Source: Betaproteobacteria bacterium
GTDB taxonomy: Bacteria > Pseudomonadota > Gammaproteobacteria > Burkholderiales > SG8-39
Length of the DNA stretch: 40,070 nucleotides
Reading direction: 5' to 3'
NCBI GenBank assembly: GCA_016189945.1
Contig: JACPRN010000048.1
Span: 1-40,070, forward strand
The notes below the pieces were generated by a model. That model saw nothing but the letters and a program-made list of their open reading frames with translations, did no database searches and was not told the DNA's origin. Made by a program: the position numbers and the translations under genes. Shown here one piece after another: positions 6,417 through 12,678 of the stretch. Positions within the stretch are counted from its first letter, which is position 1; every line of letters starts with the position of its first letter.

Positions 6417-7832
6417 TCACCAAAGGTAGAACATGAATACCCACGGCACCACGCCGCCCGCCACCGCTACCGCATAGGCGAGCGAGGCCGCAATCCGGCG
6501 AGATCGAACTGCTGCCGAGCGGGCGATGAGTTCTCTGCCCAGCCATAGGGCGGCGATAGCGCCGATCGCAAGCAGGGCGCCGCGCAAGAACGGCAGGCCG
6601 GGGATGCGCACGCCTTCGCCTGCGAGCACCGTGACGCTGAGCGCGGAGAGTCCGAGGAAAACGCCAATGCCCGCTTGCGGAACCAATCCGTGCGCAAGGC
6701 GATAATGATCACCGGGGGAGCGCAGCAGCGCCGCGCTAACGCGCAACCACAGCCACATCCAGCCGCCTACGACGAGCGACGTTGCACCGATGTAGCCAAG
6801 CACCATGGCGCCATCGAGCCAGGTGAAAACATCGTTCACCTCCGGATAGTGCGTCAGCACCCACCAGGGAATGTCGTCTGAAAGCGGACCGTAGATATTG
6901 TTGGCGACCAGCCATTCGGCGATCGCCATCTTCGCTTTCACCAGCCACGGCGATGCGGTCCACTGCAGCGCGCCGTTGGCGATGCCGATCAGGCCGAACA
7001 GAAGCAAGCGGACTTCCCACGGATTGGTGTCGCTGCGGGTGAGCGAGACGATTTCGCTCCCCGGTGCGCGGCCGGCGAGAGAAATCGCGTTGCGGTAACC
7101 GGAGCAACGGGCGCACATGTGGCAGCGAACGTTGCTGTTCACCAGGCGCAGATTGAGCATCGGCGCGCAGTCGACCGGTTCGGCGCGCGCGGCGGGTTCG
7201 GCCTTGAATCGGTTCCAGGCGAGCTCATCGGTCCGGAAGTGCAGGGGCGCGAAGCGCGCGAGCAGGCCGAAGATCCCGTTCGCGGGGCAAAGGTAGCGGC
7301 ACCAGACGCGCTTGCCCTTGCCCCAGATCAGTCCGACCATCATCGCGACCACACACGACCCGCCTAGGATCAGGAGCCACGCCTTGGGATACTCGTAGAC
7401 CGTGACCAATTGGCCGTAGACGGTGATGCAGACGAAAACAAAAAATGGCCAGCCGCTCCACCGGAGCCAGCGCGGGGGGGTGCGCCCCAGCCCGATGCGG
7501 CTCGCCTGCTCGCTCAAGAAACCTTCCGGGCACATCCAGCCGCACCACACGCGCCCGACCAACATCATGCTCAGCATCACGAACGGCCACCAGATGCCCC
7601 AGAAGACGAACTGCGCAAACAGCGTCAGATTGTTCAGCAGCGTTGCGCCCTGTTGAGGCAACGGCAGGAAGGCGGGGACGAGGGCGAGCACGAGATAAAA
7701 CAGGAGTATCGCCCATTGGACGGCGAAAATCAGGTACCGATGGGCTCTCAGCCACTCCCCGAGCCTTGAGAGCCGCGAGGGCTTGCGCGCGGCGAGAAAC
7801 GGGAGAGCGGCGGCCAAGTCCGTTGAGTTCAT
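6417..7832 (-). CDS. ftrD: Polyferredoxin-type 4Fe-4S membrane protein (FtrD)
   Basis: CGWMCP, CRYLCP and CHMCARC motifs, multiple TM helices, 4-nt overlap with the FTR1 gene. Confidence 0.85.
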   Translation of the reverse strand: MNSTDLAAALPFLAARKPSRLSRLGEWLRAHRYLIFAVQWAILLFYLVLALVPAFLPLPQQGATLLNNLTLFAQFVFWGIWWPFVMLSMMLVGRVWCGWMCPEGFLSEQASRIGLGRTPPRWLRWSGWPFFVFVCITVYGQLVTVYEYPKAWLLILGGSCVVAMMVGLIWGKGKRVWCRYLCPANGIFGLLARFAPLHFRTDELAWNRFKAEPAARAEPVDCAPMLNLRLVNSNVRCHMCARCSGYRNAISLAGRAPGSEIVSLTRSDTNPWEVRLLLFGLIGIANGALQWTASPWLVKAKMAIAEWLVANNIYGPLSDDIPWWVLTHYPEVNDVFTWLDGAMVLGYIGATSLVVGGWMWLWLRVSAALLRSPGDHYRLAHGLVPQAGIGVFLGLSALSVTVLAGEGVRIPGLPFLRGALLAIGAIAALWLGRELIARSAAVRSRRIAASLAYAVAVAGGVVPWVFMFYLW

Positions 7833-8650
7833 TTGTCAGCTCCTTTTGCGGCATGCCGCAGCCACCACAGCGCCACCGCCCAATAGATCAAGAATGCGAG
7901 TACGACGACACCCGCCGGCCGCGCCCGATAGCCCGTGAAGGCGCTCACCAATCCGCCCGCAGTACCCGCGTCGTCGAACACCGCGGAGACGTCAAAGAGC
8001 GGCTCGCCAAGGGCTGGCAACCAGTCCAGCGCGAGCAAGCGCTCGATTCCGGTCACCACCAGCGCCCCGGCAAGCAGGAGCAGCAGCGCACTCGAGGCGC
8101 GGAAAAACAGCCTTGCCGGAACCCAGCGGCTGCCGCGAACGAGCAGCGCCCCGGTGGCTAGCGCAAGCAGAAAGCCCAGAGCCGAGCCGAGTGCCATGTC
8201 GAGGAGCTCGCCGCCGCGGCGCTCGGCAGCGATTCCGTAGAGGAAGAGCACCGCCTCCGCGCCTTCGCGCCCGATGGCAAGCGCGGCGAGGAGCGCGCAG
8301 GACCAGCCGCCGGCGCGTTCTGCCGCGCGGGTCATGCTGATTTCCAATTCACGGCGCAGATGGCGTCCATGCGAGTTCATCCAAGCGACCATTTGCGCGA
8401 TCAGCGCCGCAGCGGCGAACAGCACGGCAATTTGAAACGCGTCGAGCGCCTGGCCCGCGAGCTGGCTCTGCAATCCCAGCATCAGCGCGCCGAGGGCGAG
8501 CGCGAGCAAGACTCCGGCGGCGGTGCCGAAAAGGAGATGGCGCAGTCCTACGCCGGAGCCCGAGCTGCGGCGAATCCACGCGTACAGGATGCCGATCACC
8601 AGAATCGCCTCGACGCTTTCGCGCCAGACGACAAACATCGCGTTGCTCAT
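7829..8650 (-). CDS. ftrC: FTR1-family iron permease (FtrC)
   Basis: Two RExxE motifs (RESVE, REGAE), hydrophobic, C-terminal FTGYRARP. ATG 8650 with SD GAGGAG. Confidence 0.92.
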   Translation of the reverse strand: MSNAMFVVWRESVEAILVIGILYAWIRRSSGSGVGLRHLLFGTAAGVLLALALGALMLGLQSQLAGQALDAFQIAVLFAAAALIAQMVAWMNSHGRHLRRELEISMTRAAERAGGWSCALLAALAIGREGAEAVLFLYGIAAERRGGELLDMALGSALGFLLALATGALLVRGSRWVPARLFFRASSALLLLLAGALVVTGIERLLALDWLPALGEPLFDVSAVFDDAGTAGGLVSAFTGYRARPAGVVVLAFLIYWAVALWWLRHAAKGADK

Positions 8651-8660
8651 CGTTCGCTCC

Positions 8661-9005
8661 TCATTTGGCCACGATACGGCCGTGGGCGGTCTTGGGATGG
8701 AACTCGCCGACAAATGGATAGGTACCCGGCTTGAGCGGCGCGAACACGAGCACGCGGCTCACCCCGGGCGCGAGCACCAGCTCCTTGCGCAACTCCTTGG
8801 TCTCGAACTCTTCGGGTCCCGCGTTTTGGTTGGTGATTTCCAGGCGAAAGCGTGTGTTGGCCGGGACCTCGACCGTTTCCGGAAACCATTTGCCCTCGCG
8901 CGCGACGAGCTTGAACGTCGGAACGTCCTCGGGCCATGCGACGGGACTCGCGAGCGCGAAAAGCGCCATCGAGCAGCAGCACGCAAGCACGCGGATCAAC
9001 GCCAT
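8661..9005 (-). CDS. ftrB: Periplasmic cupredoxin-domain protein (FtrB)
   Basis: Signal peptide, PEEFE..ELRKE and PGTYPFVGEFHP. ATG 9005 with SD GGGGAG. Confidence 0.88.
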   Translation of the reverse strand: MALIRVLACCCSMALFALASPVAWPEDVPTFKLVAREGKWFPETVEVPANTRFRLEITNQNAGPEEFETKELRKELVLAPGVSRVLVFAPLKPGTYPFVGEFHPKTAHGRIVAK

Positions 9006-9019
9006 GTCGTCTCCCCGGT

Positions 9020-10564
9020 TCACTGGTTGAGCTGCAGGCGAATGCCGATCACCTTGACCGGCCGCGCAGCCGGGTTGCCCGCCGCTTCACGAATCAACTG
9101 GAAATCCGGGGAGATCTCGAAATTCTGGTGAACGCGAAATCGGTAGTAGACCTCTGCGACGCGCTCGGAGCCGCGCGCGGCGAATCCGAACACGGGTGTG
9201 CCGGCTGCGTCGACAACTTGCGCCGAAGTGTTGCGGAACGCTTCGCTCGATCGATTGGCGCCAAAGGCGATGCCGAGGGCATCGCCGCCGCGCGACCAGT
9301 AGCTGCCGCCGATTTCGACGCCGAGGGCGAGCGCGCGATCGAACGGCAGTCCTTCGCCGGAGGCCCAGCCCAGCCGGCCGAAGTACGTGATGTAGTCGCC
9401 GAAGCGCTGGTCGAAATTCAAGCCGCCGCCGCGGTGCGGCCGCAGCAGGGCCTCGTCGAGGTTCGCCGGGTCGCGCAGGAAGGTGGGCGCCTGTCCGTTT
9501 CGCCACAGAAAGGCGCGGTAGTTTCCGGTGAGCCCGCCGAAGCGCTGCGTGGCCTCGGCTTGGCCGATCCAGAAGGGTGAGCGAAACCCTTCGGAGAAAT
9601 TGGCGCCGCGCCCGGCGCCGAACATGGCGAAAGACAGGCCCCAGGGTTCGCTCTTGGTGCGCTCGTTGCGGTAGGCGACGCGCACGCCCGGAGAGAATCC
9701 GAAGCCGTCCGCCCCGACGTTGGCCGCCAGCGGGTTGTCGAGCAGCGCGTTGTGAACGAATGGGCTGGCGAGAAACTGGCGCGTTTCGTCGTTGGCCGCA
9801 GCGTTCTGGTCGAAGAACGCGAACGGATCCATCTTGCCGAAGTTGATGGTGAGCTTCTCGCGCGATTGCGGCTTGAAGCCGCCGAACGGCAGCGGGATGT
9901 CGGCGCGGTAATAGGCTTGCGCGAGCAGCAGTGCGCTGTTTTCCGCGGGAATGGCGGTGCCGAGCTGAAACGAGGAGACGTTCGGACCGGCAAAAGAAGT
10001 GAGGTTTTGCGAGATTCCTCGGCCCTGGCCGACGCGGAAATGCCCGAAGAGCTTGCTTTCGATGTCGCCCGTTTTCACCGTCGGCGTCGTCACCGTGATG
10101 TCGGCGCGGTAGTTGAGCGTCGTCCCGTTGGTGTCGACGCTGGTTGCCCTCTGTCCCACCGAAGTGAAACTCGCCCCGGCGGCAAAGCCCTCGATCGAAT
10201 CGATCACCGTGGCCTGCTTCTTGATGTCGAGGGTGTTGTATTCGACCGCTTTCAGGCGCGAAGCGAGCTCAGGCTCCCGCTCGGATATGCCCTCATCGGC
10301 GAGCGCGTCTTCGAGCCGCTTGTTGTAGCTCTCCAAGGCCTTGATGCGGGCTTCGATCTCGCCTTGGCTTCGCGCTGGCCGATCGGCATACGTCTTCAGT
10401 TGCGCCTCCAGGGCGGCGTTTCGTTTTTCCACCCGTTCCAGGCGCTCGGCAAGGCGCCGCAGTTCGTCGCGCAACGAAGTCTCCTCCGGCGTTGCCGCGC
10501 GCGCGCCGGCAACATTGATCGCCAAGGCGAGGAGCGCGCCCGCGGCGATAAGGCTCGTGCGCAT
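9020..10564 (-). CDS. OprB-like outer-membrane porin with N-terminal coiled coil inside the ftr operon (FtrP-like)
   Basis: Signal peptide, heptad-rich segment, GKMDPFAFFDQN..ANDETRQF, EVYYRF..EISPDFQLI. TGATG overlap with the ftrA stop. Confidence 0.8.
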   Translation of the reverse strand: MRTSLIAAGALLALAINVAGARAATPEETSLRDELRRLAERLERVEKRNAALEAQLKTYADRPARSQGEIEARIKALESYNKRLEDALADEGISEREPELASRLKAVEYNTLDIKKQATVIDSIEGFAAGASFTSVGQRATSVDTNGTTLNYRADITVTTPTVKTGDIESKLFGHFRVGQGRGISQNLTSFAGPNVSSFQLGTAIPAENSALLLAQAYYRADIPLPFGGFKPQSREKLTINFGKMDPFAFFDQNAAANDETRQFLASPFVHNALLDNPLAANVGADGFGFSPGVRVAYRNERTKSEPWGLSFAMFGAGRGANFSEGFRSPFWIGQAEATQRFGGLTGNYRAFLWRNGQAPTFLRDPANLDEALLRPHRGGGLNFDQRFGDYITYFGRLGWASGEGLPFDRALALGVEIGGSYWSRGGDALGIAFGANRSSEAFRNTSAQVVDAAGTPVFGFAARGSERVAEVYYRFRVHQNFEISPDFQLIREAAGNPAARPVKVIGIRLQLNQ

Positions 10565-11118
10565 CAATAGCCTCCTTTCTTGCCGATGCCGACGTAGGTG
10601 AATTCGTATTCGACTTCGAAGGGCTTGAACCAGGGACGGACGCCTGTCAGGCGATCGGTGTGCCGGCCGAAGTGCTGGTTGCGCGGATCAGCCGAAGGCG
10701 GGTGGATGCGGTATTTCAGCTTGTACTTGCCCGGTCCTTTTAGCTTGATGTTGTCGCCGTAGTGCGGTCCGTCGTTGGCGACCATGGGTACCAGCTCGCC
10801 GCTCACGGCATCAGTCGATCCGTCTTTCTTCAGCTCGAACTGCACCTTGAGGTGCGGTATCCACGCGCCCTCGCTGAATCCGTTCGGATTGTTCGCCAGG
10901 GCGCGGATGTCGGCTTCGAGATGAATGTCGGAGTCGGCCGGCGTCTTCATCATGCCGTCCGGTTCCATGGTGACGGGCTGGAGATACACGGCGGTGATCT
11001 CCATTCCGTAGCGCTGCAGCGGAGCGCCGATCGGATATTCGACCGCCAGAGCGGACGAGGCGAGGGCGAGCGGGGCGACAAGACTGGTGATCGATACGAA
11101 GCGGCGGGCAAATCGCAT
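10564..11118 (-). CDS. ftrA: Periplasmic P19/Tp34-family metal-binding protein (FtrA)
   Basis: AVYLQPVTMEP, HLEADI, PMVANDGPHYGDN, FGRHTD; signal peptide. Confidence 0.92.
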   Translation of the reverse strand: MRFARRFVSITSLVAPLALASSALAVEYPIGAPLQRYGMEITAVYLQPVTMEPDGMMKTPADSDIHLEADIRALANNPNGFSEGAWIPHLKVQFELKKDGSTDAVSGELVPMVANDGPHYGDNIKLKGPGKYKLKYRIHPPSADPRNQHFGRHTDRLTGVRPWFKPFEVEYEFTYVGIGKKGGY

Positions 11119-11129
11119 GGTCTACTCCA

Positions 11130-11279
11130 TCAAGAATTGATTGACAAAAGTTGCGGCGGACGAGCAGCGCGCGGGCGCAGGTCAAGAAAGCGGGGGCGGA
11201 GACTTAGCATGACGCGCCGCGTCGCTGCGCGCGATGAGAAATGCGGCGACCAATGCCGCGCGGACTTTTGAATTGGCAT
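11130..11279 (-). CDS. Putative 49-aa leader ORF upstream of ftrA (MPIQKSARHWSPHF...PPQLLSINS)
   Basis: ATG 11279 preceded by AAGGGAGAG; TGA 11132-11130 lies 1 nt before the ftrA SD (GGAG 11128-11125). No recognisable domain. Confidence 0.4.
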   Translation of the reverse strand: MPIQKSARHWSPHFSSRAATRRVMLSLRPRFLDLRPRAARPPQLLSINS

Positions 11280-11280
11280 T

Positions 11281-11342
11281 AGCCAGCTCTCCCTTCCGGG
11301 TGGAGGGCGCTGGCTGGCTCGCTGGCGGGACGCTAGCTGGCT
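11281..11342 (-). promoter_or_regulatory. GCCAGC repeat cluster with complementary copy; candidate HemP/HmuP-responsive RNA element
   Basis: Four (A)GCCAGC copies on the mRNA (11342-11336, 11326-11321, 11319-11313, 11315-11309) and one complementary GCTGGCT (11287-11281) 1 nt before ATG 11279. Confidence 0.55.
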
Positions 11343-11359
11343 TGCGCGGGGGCAACCGG

Positions 11360-11386
11360 GCTCGGGGGCTACTGCGCCGCCCGAGC
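11360..11386 (-). other. GC-rich stem-loop directly after the hemP stop
   Basis: GCTCGGG...CCCGAGC 7-bp stem with inner GGC/GCC pairs; no U-tract. Confidence 0.5.
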
Positions 11387-11388
11387 GC

Positions 11389-11574
11389 TTACGCGGTCAG
11401 TATCAATTTGCCGTTTTGGGTCAAGCGCAACCGATAGTCGCGGCCGCCGTGTTCAATGATCAGGTCGCCGCGAGGCCCGAGCAGGGCTTGGCTCGAAATT
11501 CTCTGCTGAACTGCGGCGGGCTTTGCCGCGGCGAGCACGCGAATCGGCAGTCGTTGTCTGGCGCGCATGTCCAT
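11389..11574 (-). CDS. hemP: Hemin uptake protein HemP/HmuP family
   Basis: Signature [33 protein letters not shown]; upstream of an iron-uptake operon with a Fur-like box. Confidence 0.92.
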
Positions 11575-11580
11575 GGACGA

Positions 11581-11609
11581 ACGATAACGATTCGCATTTC
11601 GGTAGTCAA
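11581..11609 (-). promoter_or_regulatory. Sigma70 promoter of hemP overlapped by a Fur box
   Basis: Minus strand TTGACT (11609-11604), 17 nt, TATCGT (11586-11581), 6 nt, ATG. Fur-like GATAACGATTCGCATTTCG at 11583-11601 matches 12/19 of GATAATGATAATCATTATC. Confidence 0.75.
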
Positions 11610-11645
11610 CAGCGATGTCGGAAAAGCGTGATATGGATCAAACCG

Positions 11646-11679
11646 ACCCTCCCGCCCAGCGACGCCCGGGCGGGAGGGT
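11646..11679 (-). terminator. Strong hairpin ending the carboxyltransferase/Bug operon
   Basis: 12-bp perfect inverted repeat ACCCTCCCGCCC / GGGCGGGAGGGT, 21 nt past the Bug stop; U-tract weak. Confidence 0.6.
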
Positions 11680-11700
11680 GTGCCGTGCTTGATCGCGCCG

Positions 11701-12678
11701 CTACTCGAAGCGGATGTTCAGCTCCCGCAGGGCCTTGGTCCACTTGGCCACCTCCGCCCTGTGGATGGGGCCGAATTCCGCCGGCGGCATTCCCATCCCG
11801 GCGGATTCACGGCCCTGCGCCGCGGTGCGCTTCTTCATCACGTCGGAATTGAGGACCACGGCGAGCGCGCCGTAGAGCTTGTCGATCACCGGACGCGGTG
11901 TCCCCGCGGGCGCGAACAAGCCCGCCCAGGTGCTCGCCTGAAAGTCCAATCCGATCGATTCGTGCACGGTCGGGACATCGGGCATGAAGGAGCTTCGCGC
12001 AGTGCCGGCAATGGCCAGAGGCCGGAGCTTTCCGGCGCGGATGTGCGGCAGGAGCGGCGGAATCGATAGAACGATGATGGGGACTTCGCCGGAGAGGGTG
12101 GCGGTTATCGAAGGCGAGGCGCCCTTGAAGCCGACGTGAACGATTTTGGTCCCGGCCACCAGATTGAACAGTTCGGTTCCCACCTGAAACTCGGGCGCGG
12201 CCGACGAATAGAACAATTTCCCCGGCTGCGCCTTGGCCATTTCGACCAGTTCCTTGAACGACTTCGCTGGAAACGACGGATGAACGGCGAACAGCAACGG
12301 GTCGAGATTGAAGCGCGTGATGGGGATGAAATCCTTCACCGGGTCGTAGGGGAGCTTCTTGTACATACCCGCGGCCAGAACCATCGCGCCGCCGGTTCCG
12401 GCCATGAGCGTGTAGCCATCGGGCTCCGACTTGGCGACGAAGTCCGCCGCGATGATGCCGTTGGCGCCGGGCTTATTGTCCACCAGTACCGGTTGGCCCA
12501 GTTGCTCGGCGAGCATCGCGCCGACCTGGCGCGCGGTCACATCGGTGCCGCCGCCGGGCGCGGCTCCGACGACGAATTTTATCGGCTTGCTCGGATAGCT
12601 TTGCGCGGCCGCAGCGCCCGAGGCGAGGGCGAGCGCGAAAGCGAGGAACAGTCCGGTAGTGCCAAATGTTGCCCTCAT
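11701..12678 (-). CDS. Bug/TctC tripartite tricarboxylate transporter substrate-binding protein
   Basis: AQSYPSKPIKFVV..APGGGTD, DNKPGANG, PDGYTL, PDVPT, WAGLFAPAGTP. ATG 12678 with SD GGAGGAG. Confidence 0.95.
   Translation of the reverse strand: MRATFGTTGLFLAFALALASGAAAAQSYPSKPIKFVVGAAPGGGTDVTARQVGAMLAEQLGQPVLVDNKPGANGIIAADFVAKSEPDGYTLMAGTGGAMVLAAGMYKKLPYDPVKDFIPITRFNLDPLLFAVHPSFPAKSFKELVEMAKAQPGKLFYSSAAPEFQVGTELFNLVAGTKIVHVGFKGASPSITATLSGEVPIIVLSIPPLLPHIRAGKLRPLAIAGTARSSFMPDVPTVHESIGLDFQASTWAGLFAPAGTPRPVIDKLYGALAVVLNSDVMKKRTAAQGRESAGMGMPPAEFGPIHRAEVAKWTKALRELNIRFE

Follow-up and report, generated by a model that had tools for sequence, protein, structure and literature searches.

Results

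The hemP-ftrA region

The window analysed in this study is a stretch of 40,070 nt (contig JACPRN010000048.1, assembly GCA_016189945.1) from a betaproteobacterial groundwater metagenome-assembled genome (MAG) of 3.55 Mb that is 80% complete. The sequencing runs listed for it are four DNA runs of a single groundwater study. On its minus strand, between positions 11609 and 11119, a promoter-like site is followed by hemP, which encodes a small protein of the HemP/HmuP family, a stem-loop, a series of GCCAGC repeats, a hairpin that encloses a Shine-Dalgarno (SD) sequence, and a short leader open reading frame (ORF), after which the genes of a FtrABCD-type iron transport system begin with ftrA (Table 1). 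A first-pass annotation of this DNA had proposed that HemP binds the repeats, frees the SD sequence and so couples translation of the leader to that of ftrA. Its description of the layout is correct apart from the number of repeats, and its interpretation is partly supported. From the comparisons reported below the region is best read as an element of the HmuP-responsive element (HPRE) type in a new target context, with a hairpin and a leader that are specific to its clade.

Table 1. Features of the hemP-ftrA region and of the downstream genes, in the direction of reading of the minus strand (MFE, minimum free energy).
Feature	Position	Strand	Evidence and remarks
Sigma-70-like promoter, TTGACT-17-TATCGT, 5' of hemP	11581..11609	-	sole promoter-like match in 10900-11900; shuffle mean 0.2
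Fur-box-like site AATGCGAATCGTTATC, overlaps the -10 region	11583..11598	-	13/16 to a 16-nt consensus
hemP, 61 aa, HemP/HmuP family	11389..11574	-	PF10636, E 1.9e-16
Stem-loop directly 3' of the hemP stop, without U run	11360..11386	-	MFE fold, centroid fold, consensus of 6 relatives
HPRE copy 1, AGCCAGC, inside CGCAAGCCAGC	11336..11342	-	11-mer as in C. violaceum chuR HPRE; invariant in 9 loci
HPRE copy 2, GCCAGC	11321..11326	-	sequence
HPRE copies 3 and 4, AGCCAGCCAGC; final 7 nt are the hairpin 5' arm	11309..11319	-	sequence, folding, alignment
Hairpin AGCCAGC-GCCCUCC-loop-GGAAGGGAGA-GCUGGCU around the leader SD	11281..11315	-	-20.1 kcal/mol, outer stem P = 0.96
Leader ORF, 49 codons	11130..11279	-	ATG 29 nt past last motif; stop TGA 11132-11130 abuts ftrA SD
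Small hairpin GCGGC-N7-GCCGC then AUUUCUCAUC, within the leader; weak, terminator-like	11243..11259	-	partly conserved in relatives
ftrA, P19-type periplasmic Fe2+ protein	10564..11118	-	PF10634, E 1.7e-63; SD GGAG 11128-11125
OprB-family porin, coiled-coil N-terminus, between ftrA and ftrB	9020..10567	-	PF04966
ftrB, cupredoxin	8661..9023	-	PF13473
ftrC, FTR1 permease	7829..8713	-	PF03239
ftrD, polyferredoxin-like membrane protein (Fer4_5)	6417..7832	-	PF12801

The Fur-boxed promoter, hemP and the stem-loop all lie on the minus strand where the first-pass annotation had put them. With this 16-nt consensus, the Fur-box-like site is the sole match in the 40-kb window at up to 3 mismatches, compared with 0.02 expected, and this hemP is the only one in the 80%-complete genome. 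The repeats were also recovered, although they amount to three sites, or to four copies if the overlapping one in the double copy GCCAGCCAGC (11318-11309) is counted, and not to four followed by a fifth. In five close relatives of the window copy 2 is fused with the next copy into GCCAGCCAGCCAGC. Pairing of the last repeat with GCUGGCU, by which the SD would be buried, appears in both the MFE and the centroid fold: the arms AGCCAGC (11315-11309) and GCUGGCU (11287-11281) pair with a probability of 0.96, and the SD-like GGGAGAG at 11293-11287 lies inside the hairpin, ahead of the ATG at 11279. The sequence would also allow an alternative 8-bp pairing of the first repeat with the same site, which had likewise been suggested, but the fold prediction assigns it a probability of about 0. 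The coordinates of the 49-codon ORF and of its stop beside the ftrA SD agree with the earlier description. The gene upstream on this strand belongs to the TctC family; it stops at 11701 and has a terminator hairpin at its end. Three weak Rfam matches all fell on the terminator of this upstream gene, and in 11119-11609 itself no Rfam covariance model matched, even at E values up to 10.

The repeats correspond to the HPRE

As quoted in PMC9131926, an HPRE predicted by Amarelle et al. (2019) lies upstream of C. violaceum chuR with the sequence CCCGCAAGCCAGCCGACAGCCAGCCAGCG, 26 nt before the ATG, and a second HPRE precedes the siderophore receptor gene vbuA. In the window CGCAAGCCAGC and AGCCAGCCAGCG represent both halves of the chuR HPRE, to which they are identical over 11 and 12 nt, respectively. 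The agreement with the published element, which the earlier annotation had been unable to confirm, holds as far as could be seen for the element as it is quoted there. The window also resembles the HPREs of the E. meliloti shmR 5' untranslated region (UTR) and of chuR and vbuA in its arrangement: tandem GCCAGCC-type motifs occupy the sense strand a few tens of nt ahead of a start codon (in the window that of the leader, not that of ftrA), with hemP in the same Fur-controlled transcription unit, and a positive post-transcriptional role has been proposed for the element. Unlike in these cases, the gene that follows in the window is the leader ORF and then ftrA (PF10634) with the remainder of a FtrABCD-type system, not a TonB-dependent haem or siderophore receptor, and an SD-enclosing anti-repeat is available for pairing with the last copy. 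A short unstructured spacer separates the motif copies in C. violaceum and in the window's clade. Many families differ from them: at eleven of the loci collected below (L053, L136, L140, L142, L152, L155-L158, L176 and L177) a short G+C-rich hairpin, variable in sequence, stands between the two copies.

Conservation of the motif after hemP

Among genomes sampled from the order hemP was present in 173 of 401, a tally that includes one unpublished genome (G061), which contributed to no other result, and 80 hemP loci from 22 betaproteobacterial families, picked to spread over the families, were fetched. At least two GCCAGC copies occurred within 200 nt after the hemP stop in 53 of the 80, compared with none of the 80 for the reversed hexamer, none for the complement and 8 of 80 for the best of 60 hexamers of the same composition. 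In an earlier sample of 60 relatives hemP was found in 20, most of which had the tandem motif. Conservation of the repeats in relatives had been named as a check on the first-pass proposal, and in this comparison it lies far above chance; we consider it decisive. In the window's own genome the pattern GCCAGC-N(0-35)-GCCAGCC occurs 39 times and the reversed pattern 38 times, and the window site is the only one of the former that is not covered by an ORF of at least 120 aa. A tblastn search of plasmids with HemP gave only 11 enterobacterial or Methylocystis records, which were without useful annotated context.

Within the window's family hemP and the motif are followed by an OprB-like porin, an imelysin and a di-haem oxidoreductase (L103), by a small Cys-rich gene and FTR1-type permeases (L104, L106) or by TonB-ExbB-ExbD (L105, L108), none of which is haem-specific. 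The same element precedes ftrA, tonB-exbBD, OprB-type porins, FTR1 fusions, TonB-dependent receptors and the gene of a small Cys-rich protein. The OprB-type porin stands directly after hemP and the motif in L103 and L165. The Cys-rich protein, of about 80-110 aa, is encoded by the first ORF after hemP in L011, L012, L014, L016, L022, L133 and L162 and at L104:389-640, and in L162 its gene sits between hemP and ftrA. Its core reads ..A.LYLMTHY.RTGCPRLA.CV..HL.CLA.HP.., it was seen 3' of hemP and the motif in three families or more, and it had no match in Pfam or NCBIfam. In family f27 (L123-L127), at 40-130 nt past the hemP stop, a strong intrinsic terminator composed of a G+C-rich stem and a T run comes directly after the tandem motif and ahead of the next gene, a layout that looks attenuator-like.

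The motif precedes ftrA in other lineages

The 80 closest ftrA loci in GTDB species genomes were also collected, 79 of which had at least 150 nt upstream. Ten of the 79 have a co-directional hemP within 700 nt on the 5' side, and in six of the ten at least two copies of the motif occur in the last 200 nt before ftrA, where both controls gave 0; in the remaining ones the copies are found further upstream (L025-L027) or as a single exact copy (L038). At the 69 loci without adjacent hemP at least two copies were found in 13 and at least one in 26, compared with 0 and 9 for the reversed hexamer and 0 and 4 for the complement. In nine of the 13 motif-bearing loci hemP lies further upstream in the same locus, at a distance of about 2 kb in eight cases. 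Locus L096 reads hemP-HPRE-tonB-exbB-exbD-HPRE-ftrA, with the genes confirmed by Pfam and the second tandem motif in the 76-nt exbD-ftrA spacer. The other motif-bearing ftrA genes (L049, L060, L063 and L076) have no hemP within 3 kb. The genomes of these four and of L029 nevertheless all contain hemP elsewhere (5/5), compared with 5/10 genomes whose ftrA is without the motif. The order hemP-motif-ftrA-oprB on one strand recurs in L142 (f25), L163 and L164 (f57), L175 (f33) and L176 and L177 (f41), and the pairing of ftrA with oprB was seen in L142, L162-L164 and L175-L177. Searches of the literature for a link of HemP, HmuP or ChuP to FtrA, ftrABCD or FTR1, or for the HPRE, surfaced only PMC7377471 (for gene context) and PMC9131926. 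The link between HPRE and ftrA is widespread and, in the literature searched, unreported.

The distance of the motif to the start codon is narrowly confined. At 18 ftrA loci from other clades than the window's, 23-41 nt (median 25) separate the end of the final copy from the start codon of ftrA, and the SD falls within this interval. For the window and L023-L027 the corresponding distances are 26-34 nt to the leader ATG and 190-376 nt to ftrA (29 and 190 nt, respectively, in the window). The leader ATG thus occupies the place that the regulated start codon holds in other lineages. Action in RNA rather than in DNA is favoured by the bias of the motif for the sense strand, by its location between cistrons and by the interval from motif to start codon, which is too short for a promoter.

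An anti-repeat within the signal-peptide codons of ftrA was considered for the loci that have no hairpin. The pentamers CTGGC and GCTGG, complementary to the motif, in codons 1-30 of ftrA (L046-L101) averaged 2.06 in 18 motif-bearing and 0.49 in 43 motif-less loci, a difference that is confounded by kinship, and the candidate was set aside as the motif-bearing loci are close kin.

A hairpin around the leader SD

The hairpin was found at nine loci, i.e. the window, L023-L027, L011, L012 and L015. In L023-L027 FtrA is 81-84% identical to that of the window (L025 is the same place as L003 of a same-genus genome), and these five share with it the architecture AAGCCAGCUAGC, GCCAGCCAGCCAGC-GCUUUCC, loop, GGAGAGCUGGCU, R and AUG. 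The other three belong to other genera of the family and have the identical architecture, but there the ATG opens a real gene of about 80 aa. The hairpin is thus retained in nine loci and in two gene contexts. RNAalifold recovered it from the nine sequences with the SD in its 3' arm, and 92.9% of the 99 cells of the alignment were paired, compared with 37-61% if the partners were slid by 1-3 columns.

The leader ORF

The leader was compared in six sequences, namely the window and L023-L027. The frame that starts at the hairpin ATG is open in all six and ends 11 nt (window, L023, L024) or 3 nt (L027) before the ftrA ATG. In L025 (2659-3549) and L026 (2776-3549) it runs in frame into ftrA without a stop, which on paper gives an N-terminally extended FtrA. 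The distances from ATG to ATG are 161, 164, 164, 342, 225 and 279 nt, and the frame is kept despite frame-shifting indels. Of the two remaining frames in each sequence, 3 out of 12 are open. Across the set the open frame is suggestive, but the sequences are kin and share parts of the spacer. The peptide starts MLISKFSAAF or similar in the five relatives; in the window 1 nt is deleted at codon 4, which changes the peptide. Any selection on the leader is on its translation, not on the peptide product. No Pfam or NCBIfam match was found for the peptide. The possibility that the leader is a remnant of the small Cys-rich gene was rejected, as a profile of that protein reached a best E value of 0.57 in the three forward frames of the six leader regions.

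The ftr operon and its probable promoter

The four genes of the FtrABCD set are complete in one cluster, with the gene of an OprB porin in addition. The same four genes make up the FtrABCD systems of Bordetella, Burkholderia and Brucella (Brickman and Armstrong, 2012, as cited in PMC7377471; PMC11966278), but the operon in the window differs in the oprB gene between ftrA and ftrB, in having no Fur box of its own and in its position behind hemP, the HPRE and the leader. In the hemP-ftrA spacer (11119-11388), which includes the part (11119-11280) where a separate promoter of ftrA had been considered, no promoter-like site was found. Fur-like sites (at most 4 mismatches) were present solely 5' of hemP in four of five close relatives and between hemP and ftrA in none of the five; L027 was without any. 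The middle of the spacer is unconserved and variable in length among the relatives. A promoter specific for ftrA that escapes sequence prediction could still exist.

With regard to haem, neither HemS/ChuX nor a complete haem receptor was found in the 80%-complete genome. Its only TonB-dependent receptors are one of 700 aa on contig C214 and a C-terminal fragment at the edge of contig C124, which scored 139.9 bits on a haem-receptor model, under a cut-off that is set for the whole protein. At this completeness absence of haem uptake from the genome is not established. The region 5' of the C214 receptor gene (C214:1250-1700) resembles a cobalamin riboswitch, by eye only.

Comparison with BrrF

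In Burkholderia cenocepacia the 126-nt RNA BrrF is cut from the hemP mRNA, starts with GUAUU and ends in a U run before a predicted terminator; downstream of it lies an ftr cluster or the gene of a haem-binding protein (PMC7377471). Five of our loci (L109-L113, family f36, genomes of about 5-8 Mb) fit this description: they start at GUAUUGUGGGG, measure about 128 nt and end in a U run ahead of a terminator, beyond which an ftr cluster lies. Within the first 125-154 nt past the hemP stop (for L109, in the locus 1-1558) they carry GUAGCCAGC as well as AAGCCA(A/G)GCC or AGCCAGC before the U run. BrrF-like RNAs therefore appear to share a short motif with the window.

The window itself is not a sequence homologue of BrrF. 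A profile of L109-L113, which match BrrF by description, scored 3.6 bits in the window and on the wrong strand, and the same profile found nothing at E values up to 0.01 in the other 75 hemP-downstream regions. The two are alike in that the region lies directly 3' of a Fur-controlled hemP and beside an ftr cluster, and in the GCCAGC motif of the BrrF-like loci. They are unlike in that the window has neither the GUAUU/GUGGGG 5' part nor, after the last motif, a run of at least four T as for a U-run end, and sequence similarity is limited to the motif. Furthermore, ftrD is on the opposite strand (convergent) in four of the five BrrF-like loci, whereas the cluster in the window is co-directional and probably co-transcribed with hemP. 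The text of PMC7377471, as far as it was available, does not mention HmuP or the HPRE, and that of PMC9131926, with the same restriction, does not mention BrrF or small RNAs (sRNAs).

Discussion

The data are most readily accommodated by a single operon, a reading that we hold tentatively and at somewhat less than even confidence. In this reading hemP, the leader ORF and ftrA-oprB-ftrBCD would be transcribed from the Fur-boxed promoter 5' of hemP, and the GCCAGC repeats in the hemP-ftrA spacer would be an HPRE that acts at the RNA level. HemP made from the same transcript would act through the repeats and thereby raise expression of the downstream genes. The step that is controlled would most likely be initiation at the leader ATG, because the last copy of the motif forms the 5' arm of the hairpin that holds the leader SD. 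Ribosomes that cross the 160-nt spacer could then relay the signal to ftrA, either by blocking premature termination or decay of the transcript or by opening the ribosome-binding site of ftrA. The comparisons establish the identity, conservation, strand bias and position of the motif, the potential of the hairpin to pair and the openness of the leader frame; binding of HemP, opening of the hairpin and coupling to ftrA are inferences.

Several observations weigh against this proposal. The hairpin is kept in nine loci, but its covariation is weak: 45 of 500 shuffles attain the observed score, compensatory changes are seen in 2 of 11 pairs while 4 of 11 never vary, and L023 and L011 have an A-C mismatch. 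Most HPRE loci outside the family (f1) are without the GCUGGC anti-repeat; the hairpin would therefore be a family-specific addition rather than the general mode of action of the motif, i.e. at most a clade-specific one. The earlier claim that binding frees the SD did not hold in the folding model. When the motifs were held unpaired the SD became less accessible (mean unpaired probability 0.18, down from 0.42), owing to persistence of the inner CCCUCC/GGAAGGG stem. Thermodynamics alone thus lends no support to the simple picture of an SD freed by binding. The openness of the leader frame is at chance in the window (1538 of 3000 dinucleotide shuffles were as open, i.e. 0.51), and the corresponding fractions in the relatives (0.30, 0.26, 0.05, 0.11 and 0.24) come from kin sequences, so that they are not independent. 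The leader peptide is unconserved, ftrA has a good SD of its own, and the co-occurrence of hemP with motif-bearing ftrA rests on a small sample in which incomplete MAGs were used. Finally, relatives of HemP in two other species have been called DNA-binding activators (PMC9131926, PMC11442138).

The HPRE could instead govern elongation or stability of the transcript, HemP acting by antitermination or by protection against RNase and setting what share of the hemP transcript extends to ftrA, with hairpin and leader incidental. This we judge rather unlikely. In its favour, the mRNAs of chuR and vbuA drop in ChuP mutants (PMC9131926), the tandem motif of family f27 is followed by its strong terminator, a run of at least four T occurs within 30 nt after the last copy in 19 of 53 tandem loci, and the window leader contains the weak terminator-like hairpin at 11259-11243; that blocking of the motif in silico leaves the SD unfreed fits as well. 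In the window, however, no run of at least four T follows the last copy (GCCCUCC does), the terminator-like hairpin is weak and only partly conserved, and the fixed spacing of 23-41 nt between motif and start codon, an interval that contains the SD, suggests the ribosome-binding site as the target. If, on the other hand, the region 3' of hemP gave rise to a trans-acting sRNA, a functional analogue of BrrF, the repeats would be part of this sRNA and not of a switch for ftrA. Such an origin, which appears improbable, would agree with the position of BrrF 3' of hemP and beside an ftr cluster and its cleavage from the hemP mRNA (PMC7377471), with the presence of GUAGCCAGC and AAGCCA(A/G)GCC in the five loci that fit its description, and with the extent of the conserved block in the window's relatives, which begins at the hemP stop, reaches about 45 nt beyond the leader ATG and leaves the rest of the spacer unconserved. 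It is opposed by the 3.6-bit, wrong-strand score of the BrrF-like profile, by the lack of a GUAUU start, a GUGGGG hairpin and an apparent U-run end in the window, by the absence of an Rfam match, and by the orientation of the genes: ftrD is convergent in the BrrF-like loci, while ftrA in the window follows on the same strand without a good intervening terminator. In addition, the motif also precedes ftrA genes that are far from any hemP.

DNA binding by HemP/HmuP has been described in B. japonicum and B. multivorans (PMC9131926, PMC11442138), and the repeats might accordingly be DNA sites at which HemP serves as transcriptional co-activator of an internal ftrA promoter. We consider this very unlikely, since the motif occurs in the sense strand only (53/80 loci, with 0/80 for the complement), ends 23-41 nt before start codons with the SD between, which leaves no space for a promoter and a 5' UTR, and is found between cistrons of operons; no promoter-like site was detected in 11119-11388, and ChuP bound none of the DNA probes across chuP-chuR that are described in PMC9131926. 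That repeats and hairpin are a functionless chance feature of a G+C-rich spacer is barely credible. The genome-wide count of the tandem pattern (39, with 38 reversed) and the fold stability of the whole 301-nt spacer, which is no better than that of shuffles (z = -0.66), would allow it, but it is contradicted by the recurrence of the motif before ftrA and by its retention 3' of hemP across 22 families, for which the controls were clean.

Proteins that act on leader RNAs are known from TRAP (GAG/UAG repeats of the trp leader), HutP and PyrR. The RNA-level action of HemP proposed here would be alike in principle, in that a small protein on short repeats in a leader RNA shifts a hairpin that controls the downstream genes. 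It would be unlike them in that the HemP family is unrelated and that the effect is activation. To our knowledge, binding of HemP to RNA has never been demonstrated.

HemP/HmuP proteins are filed under regulation of haem uptake, and their mechanism is unsettled; a 2024 review lists both transcriptional and post-transcriptional views (PMC11442138). If the element before ftrA is functional, the HemP regulon would extend to ionic-iron transport and, in relatives, to TonB systems and porins, many Ftr operons without a Fur box of their own would be iron-regulated via hemP, and the hairpin of the window's clade would provide a model of the mechanism in which repeat, anti-repeat, SD and leader start can be mutated. 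It is possible, though we regard it as doubtful, that HemP and the GCCAGCC motif constitute an iron-uptake regulon that is general in Betaproteobacteria, works at the RNA level and is not haem-specific; BrrF would then be a hemP 3' UTR that carries the element. In that case HemP may bind or stabilize BrrF, or BrrF may titrate HemP, and a cis-acting mRNA element and a trans-acting sRNA would be tied to one small haem-binding protein. On this reading the hairpin of the window's clade, with the motif as anti-SD arm, would be the first structural clue to activation by HemP. The motif shared with the BrrF-like loci would then join two lines of work (PMC7377471 and PMC9131926) that, in the text available from each, do not cite each other's subject. 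The recurrence of the element before a ferrous-iron transporter suggests that HemP governs iron uptake beyond haem.

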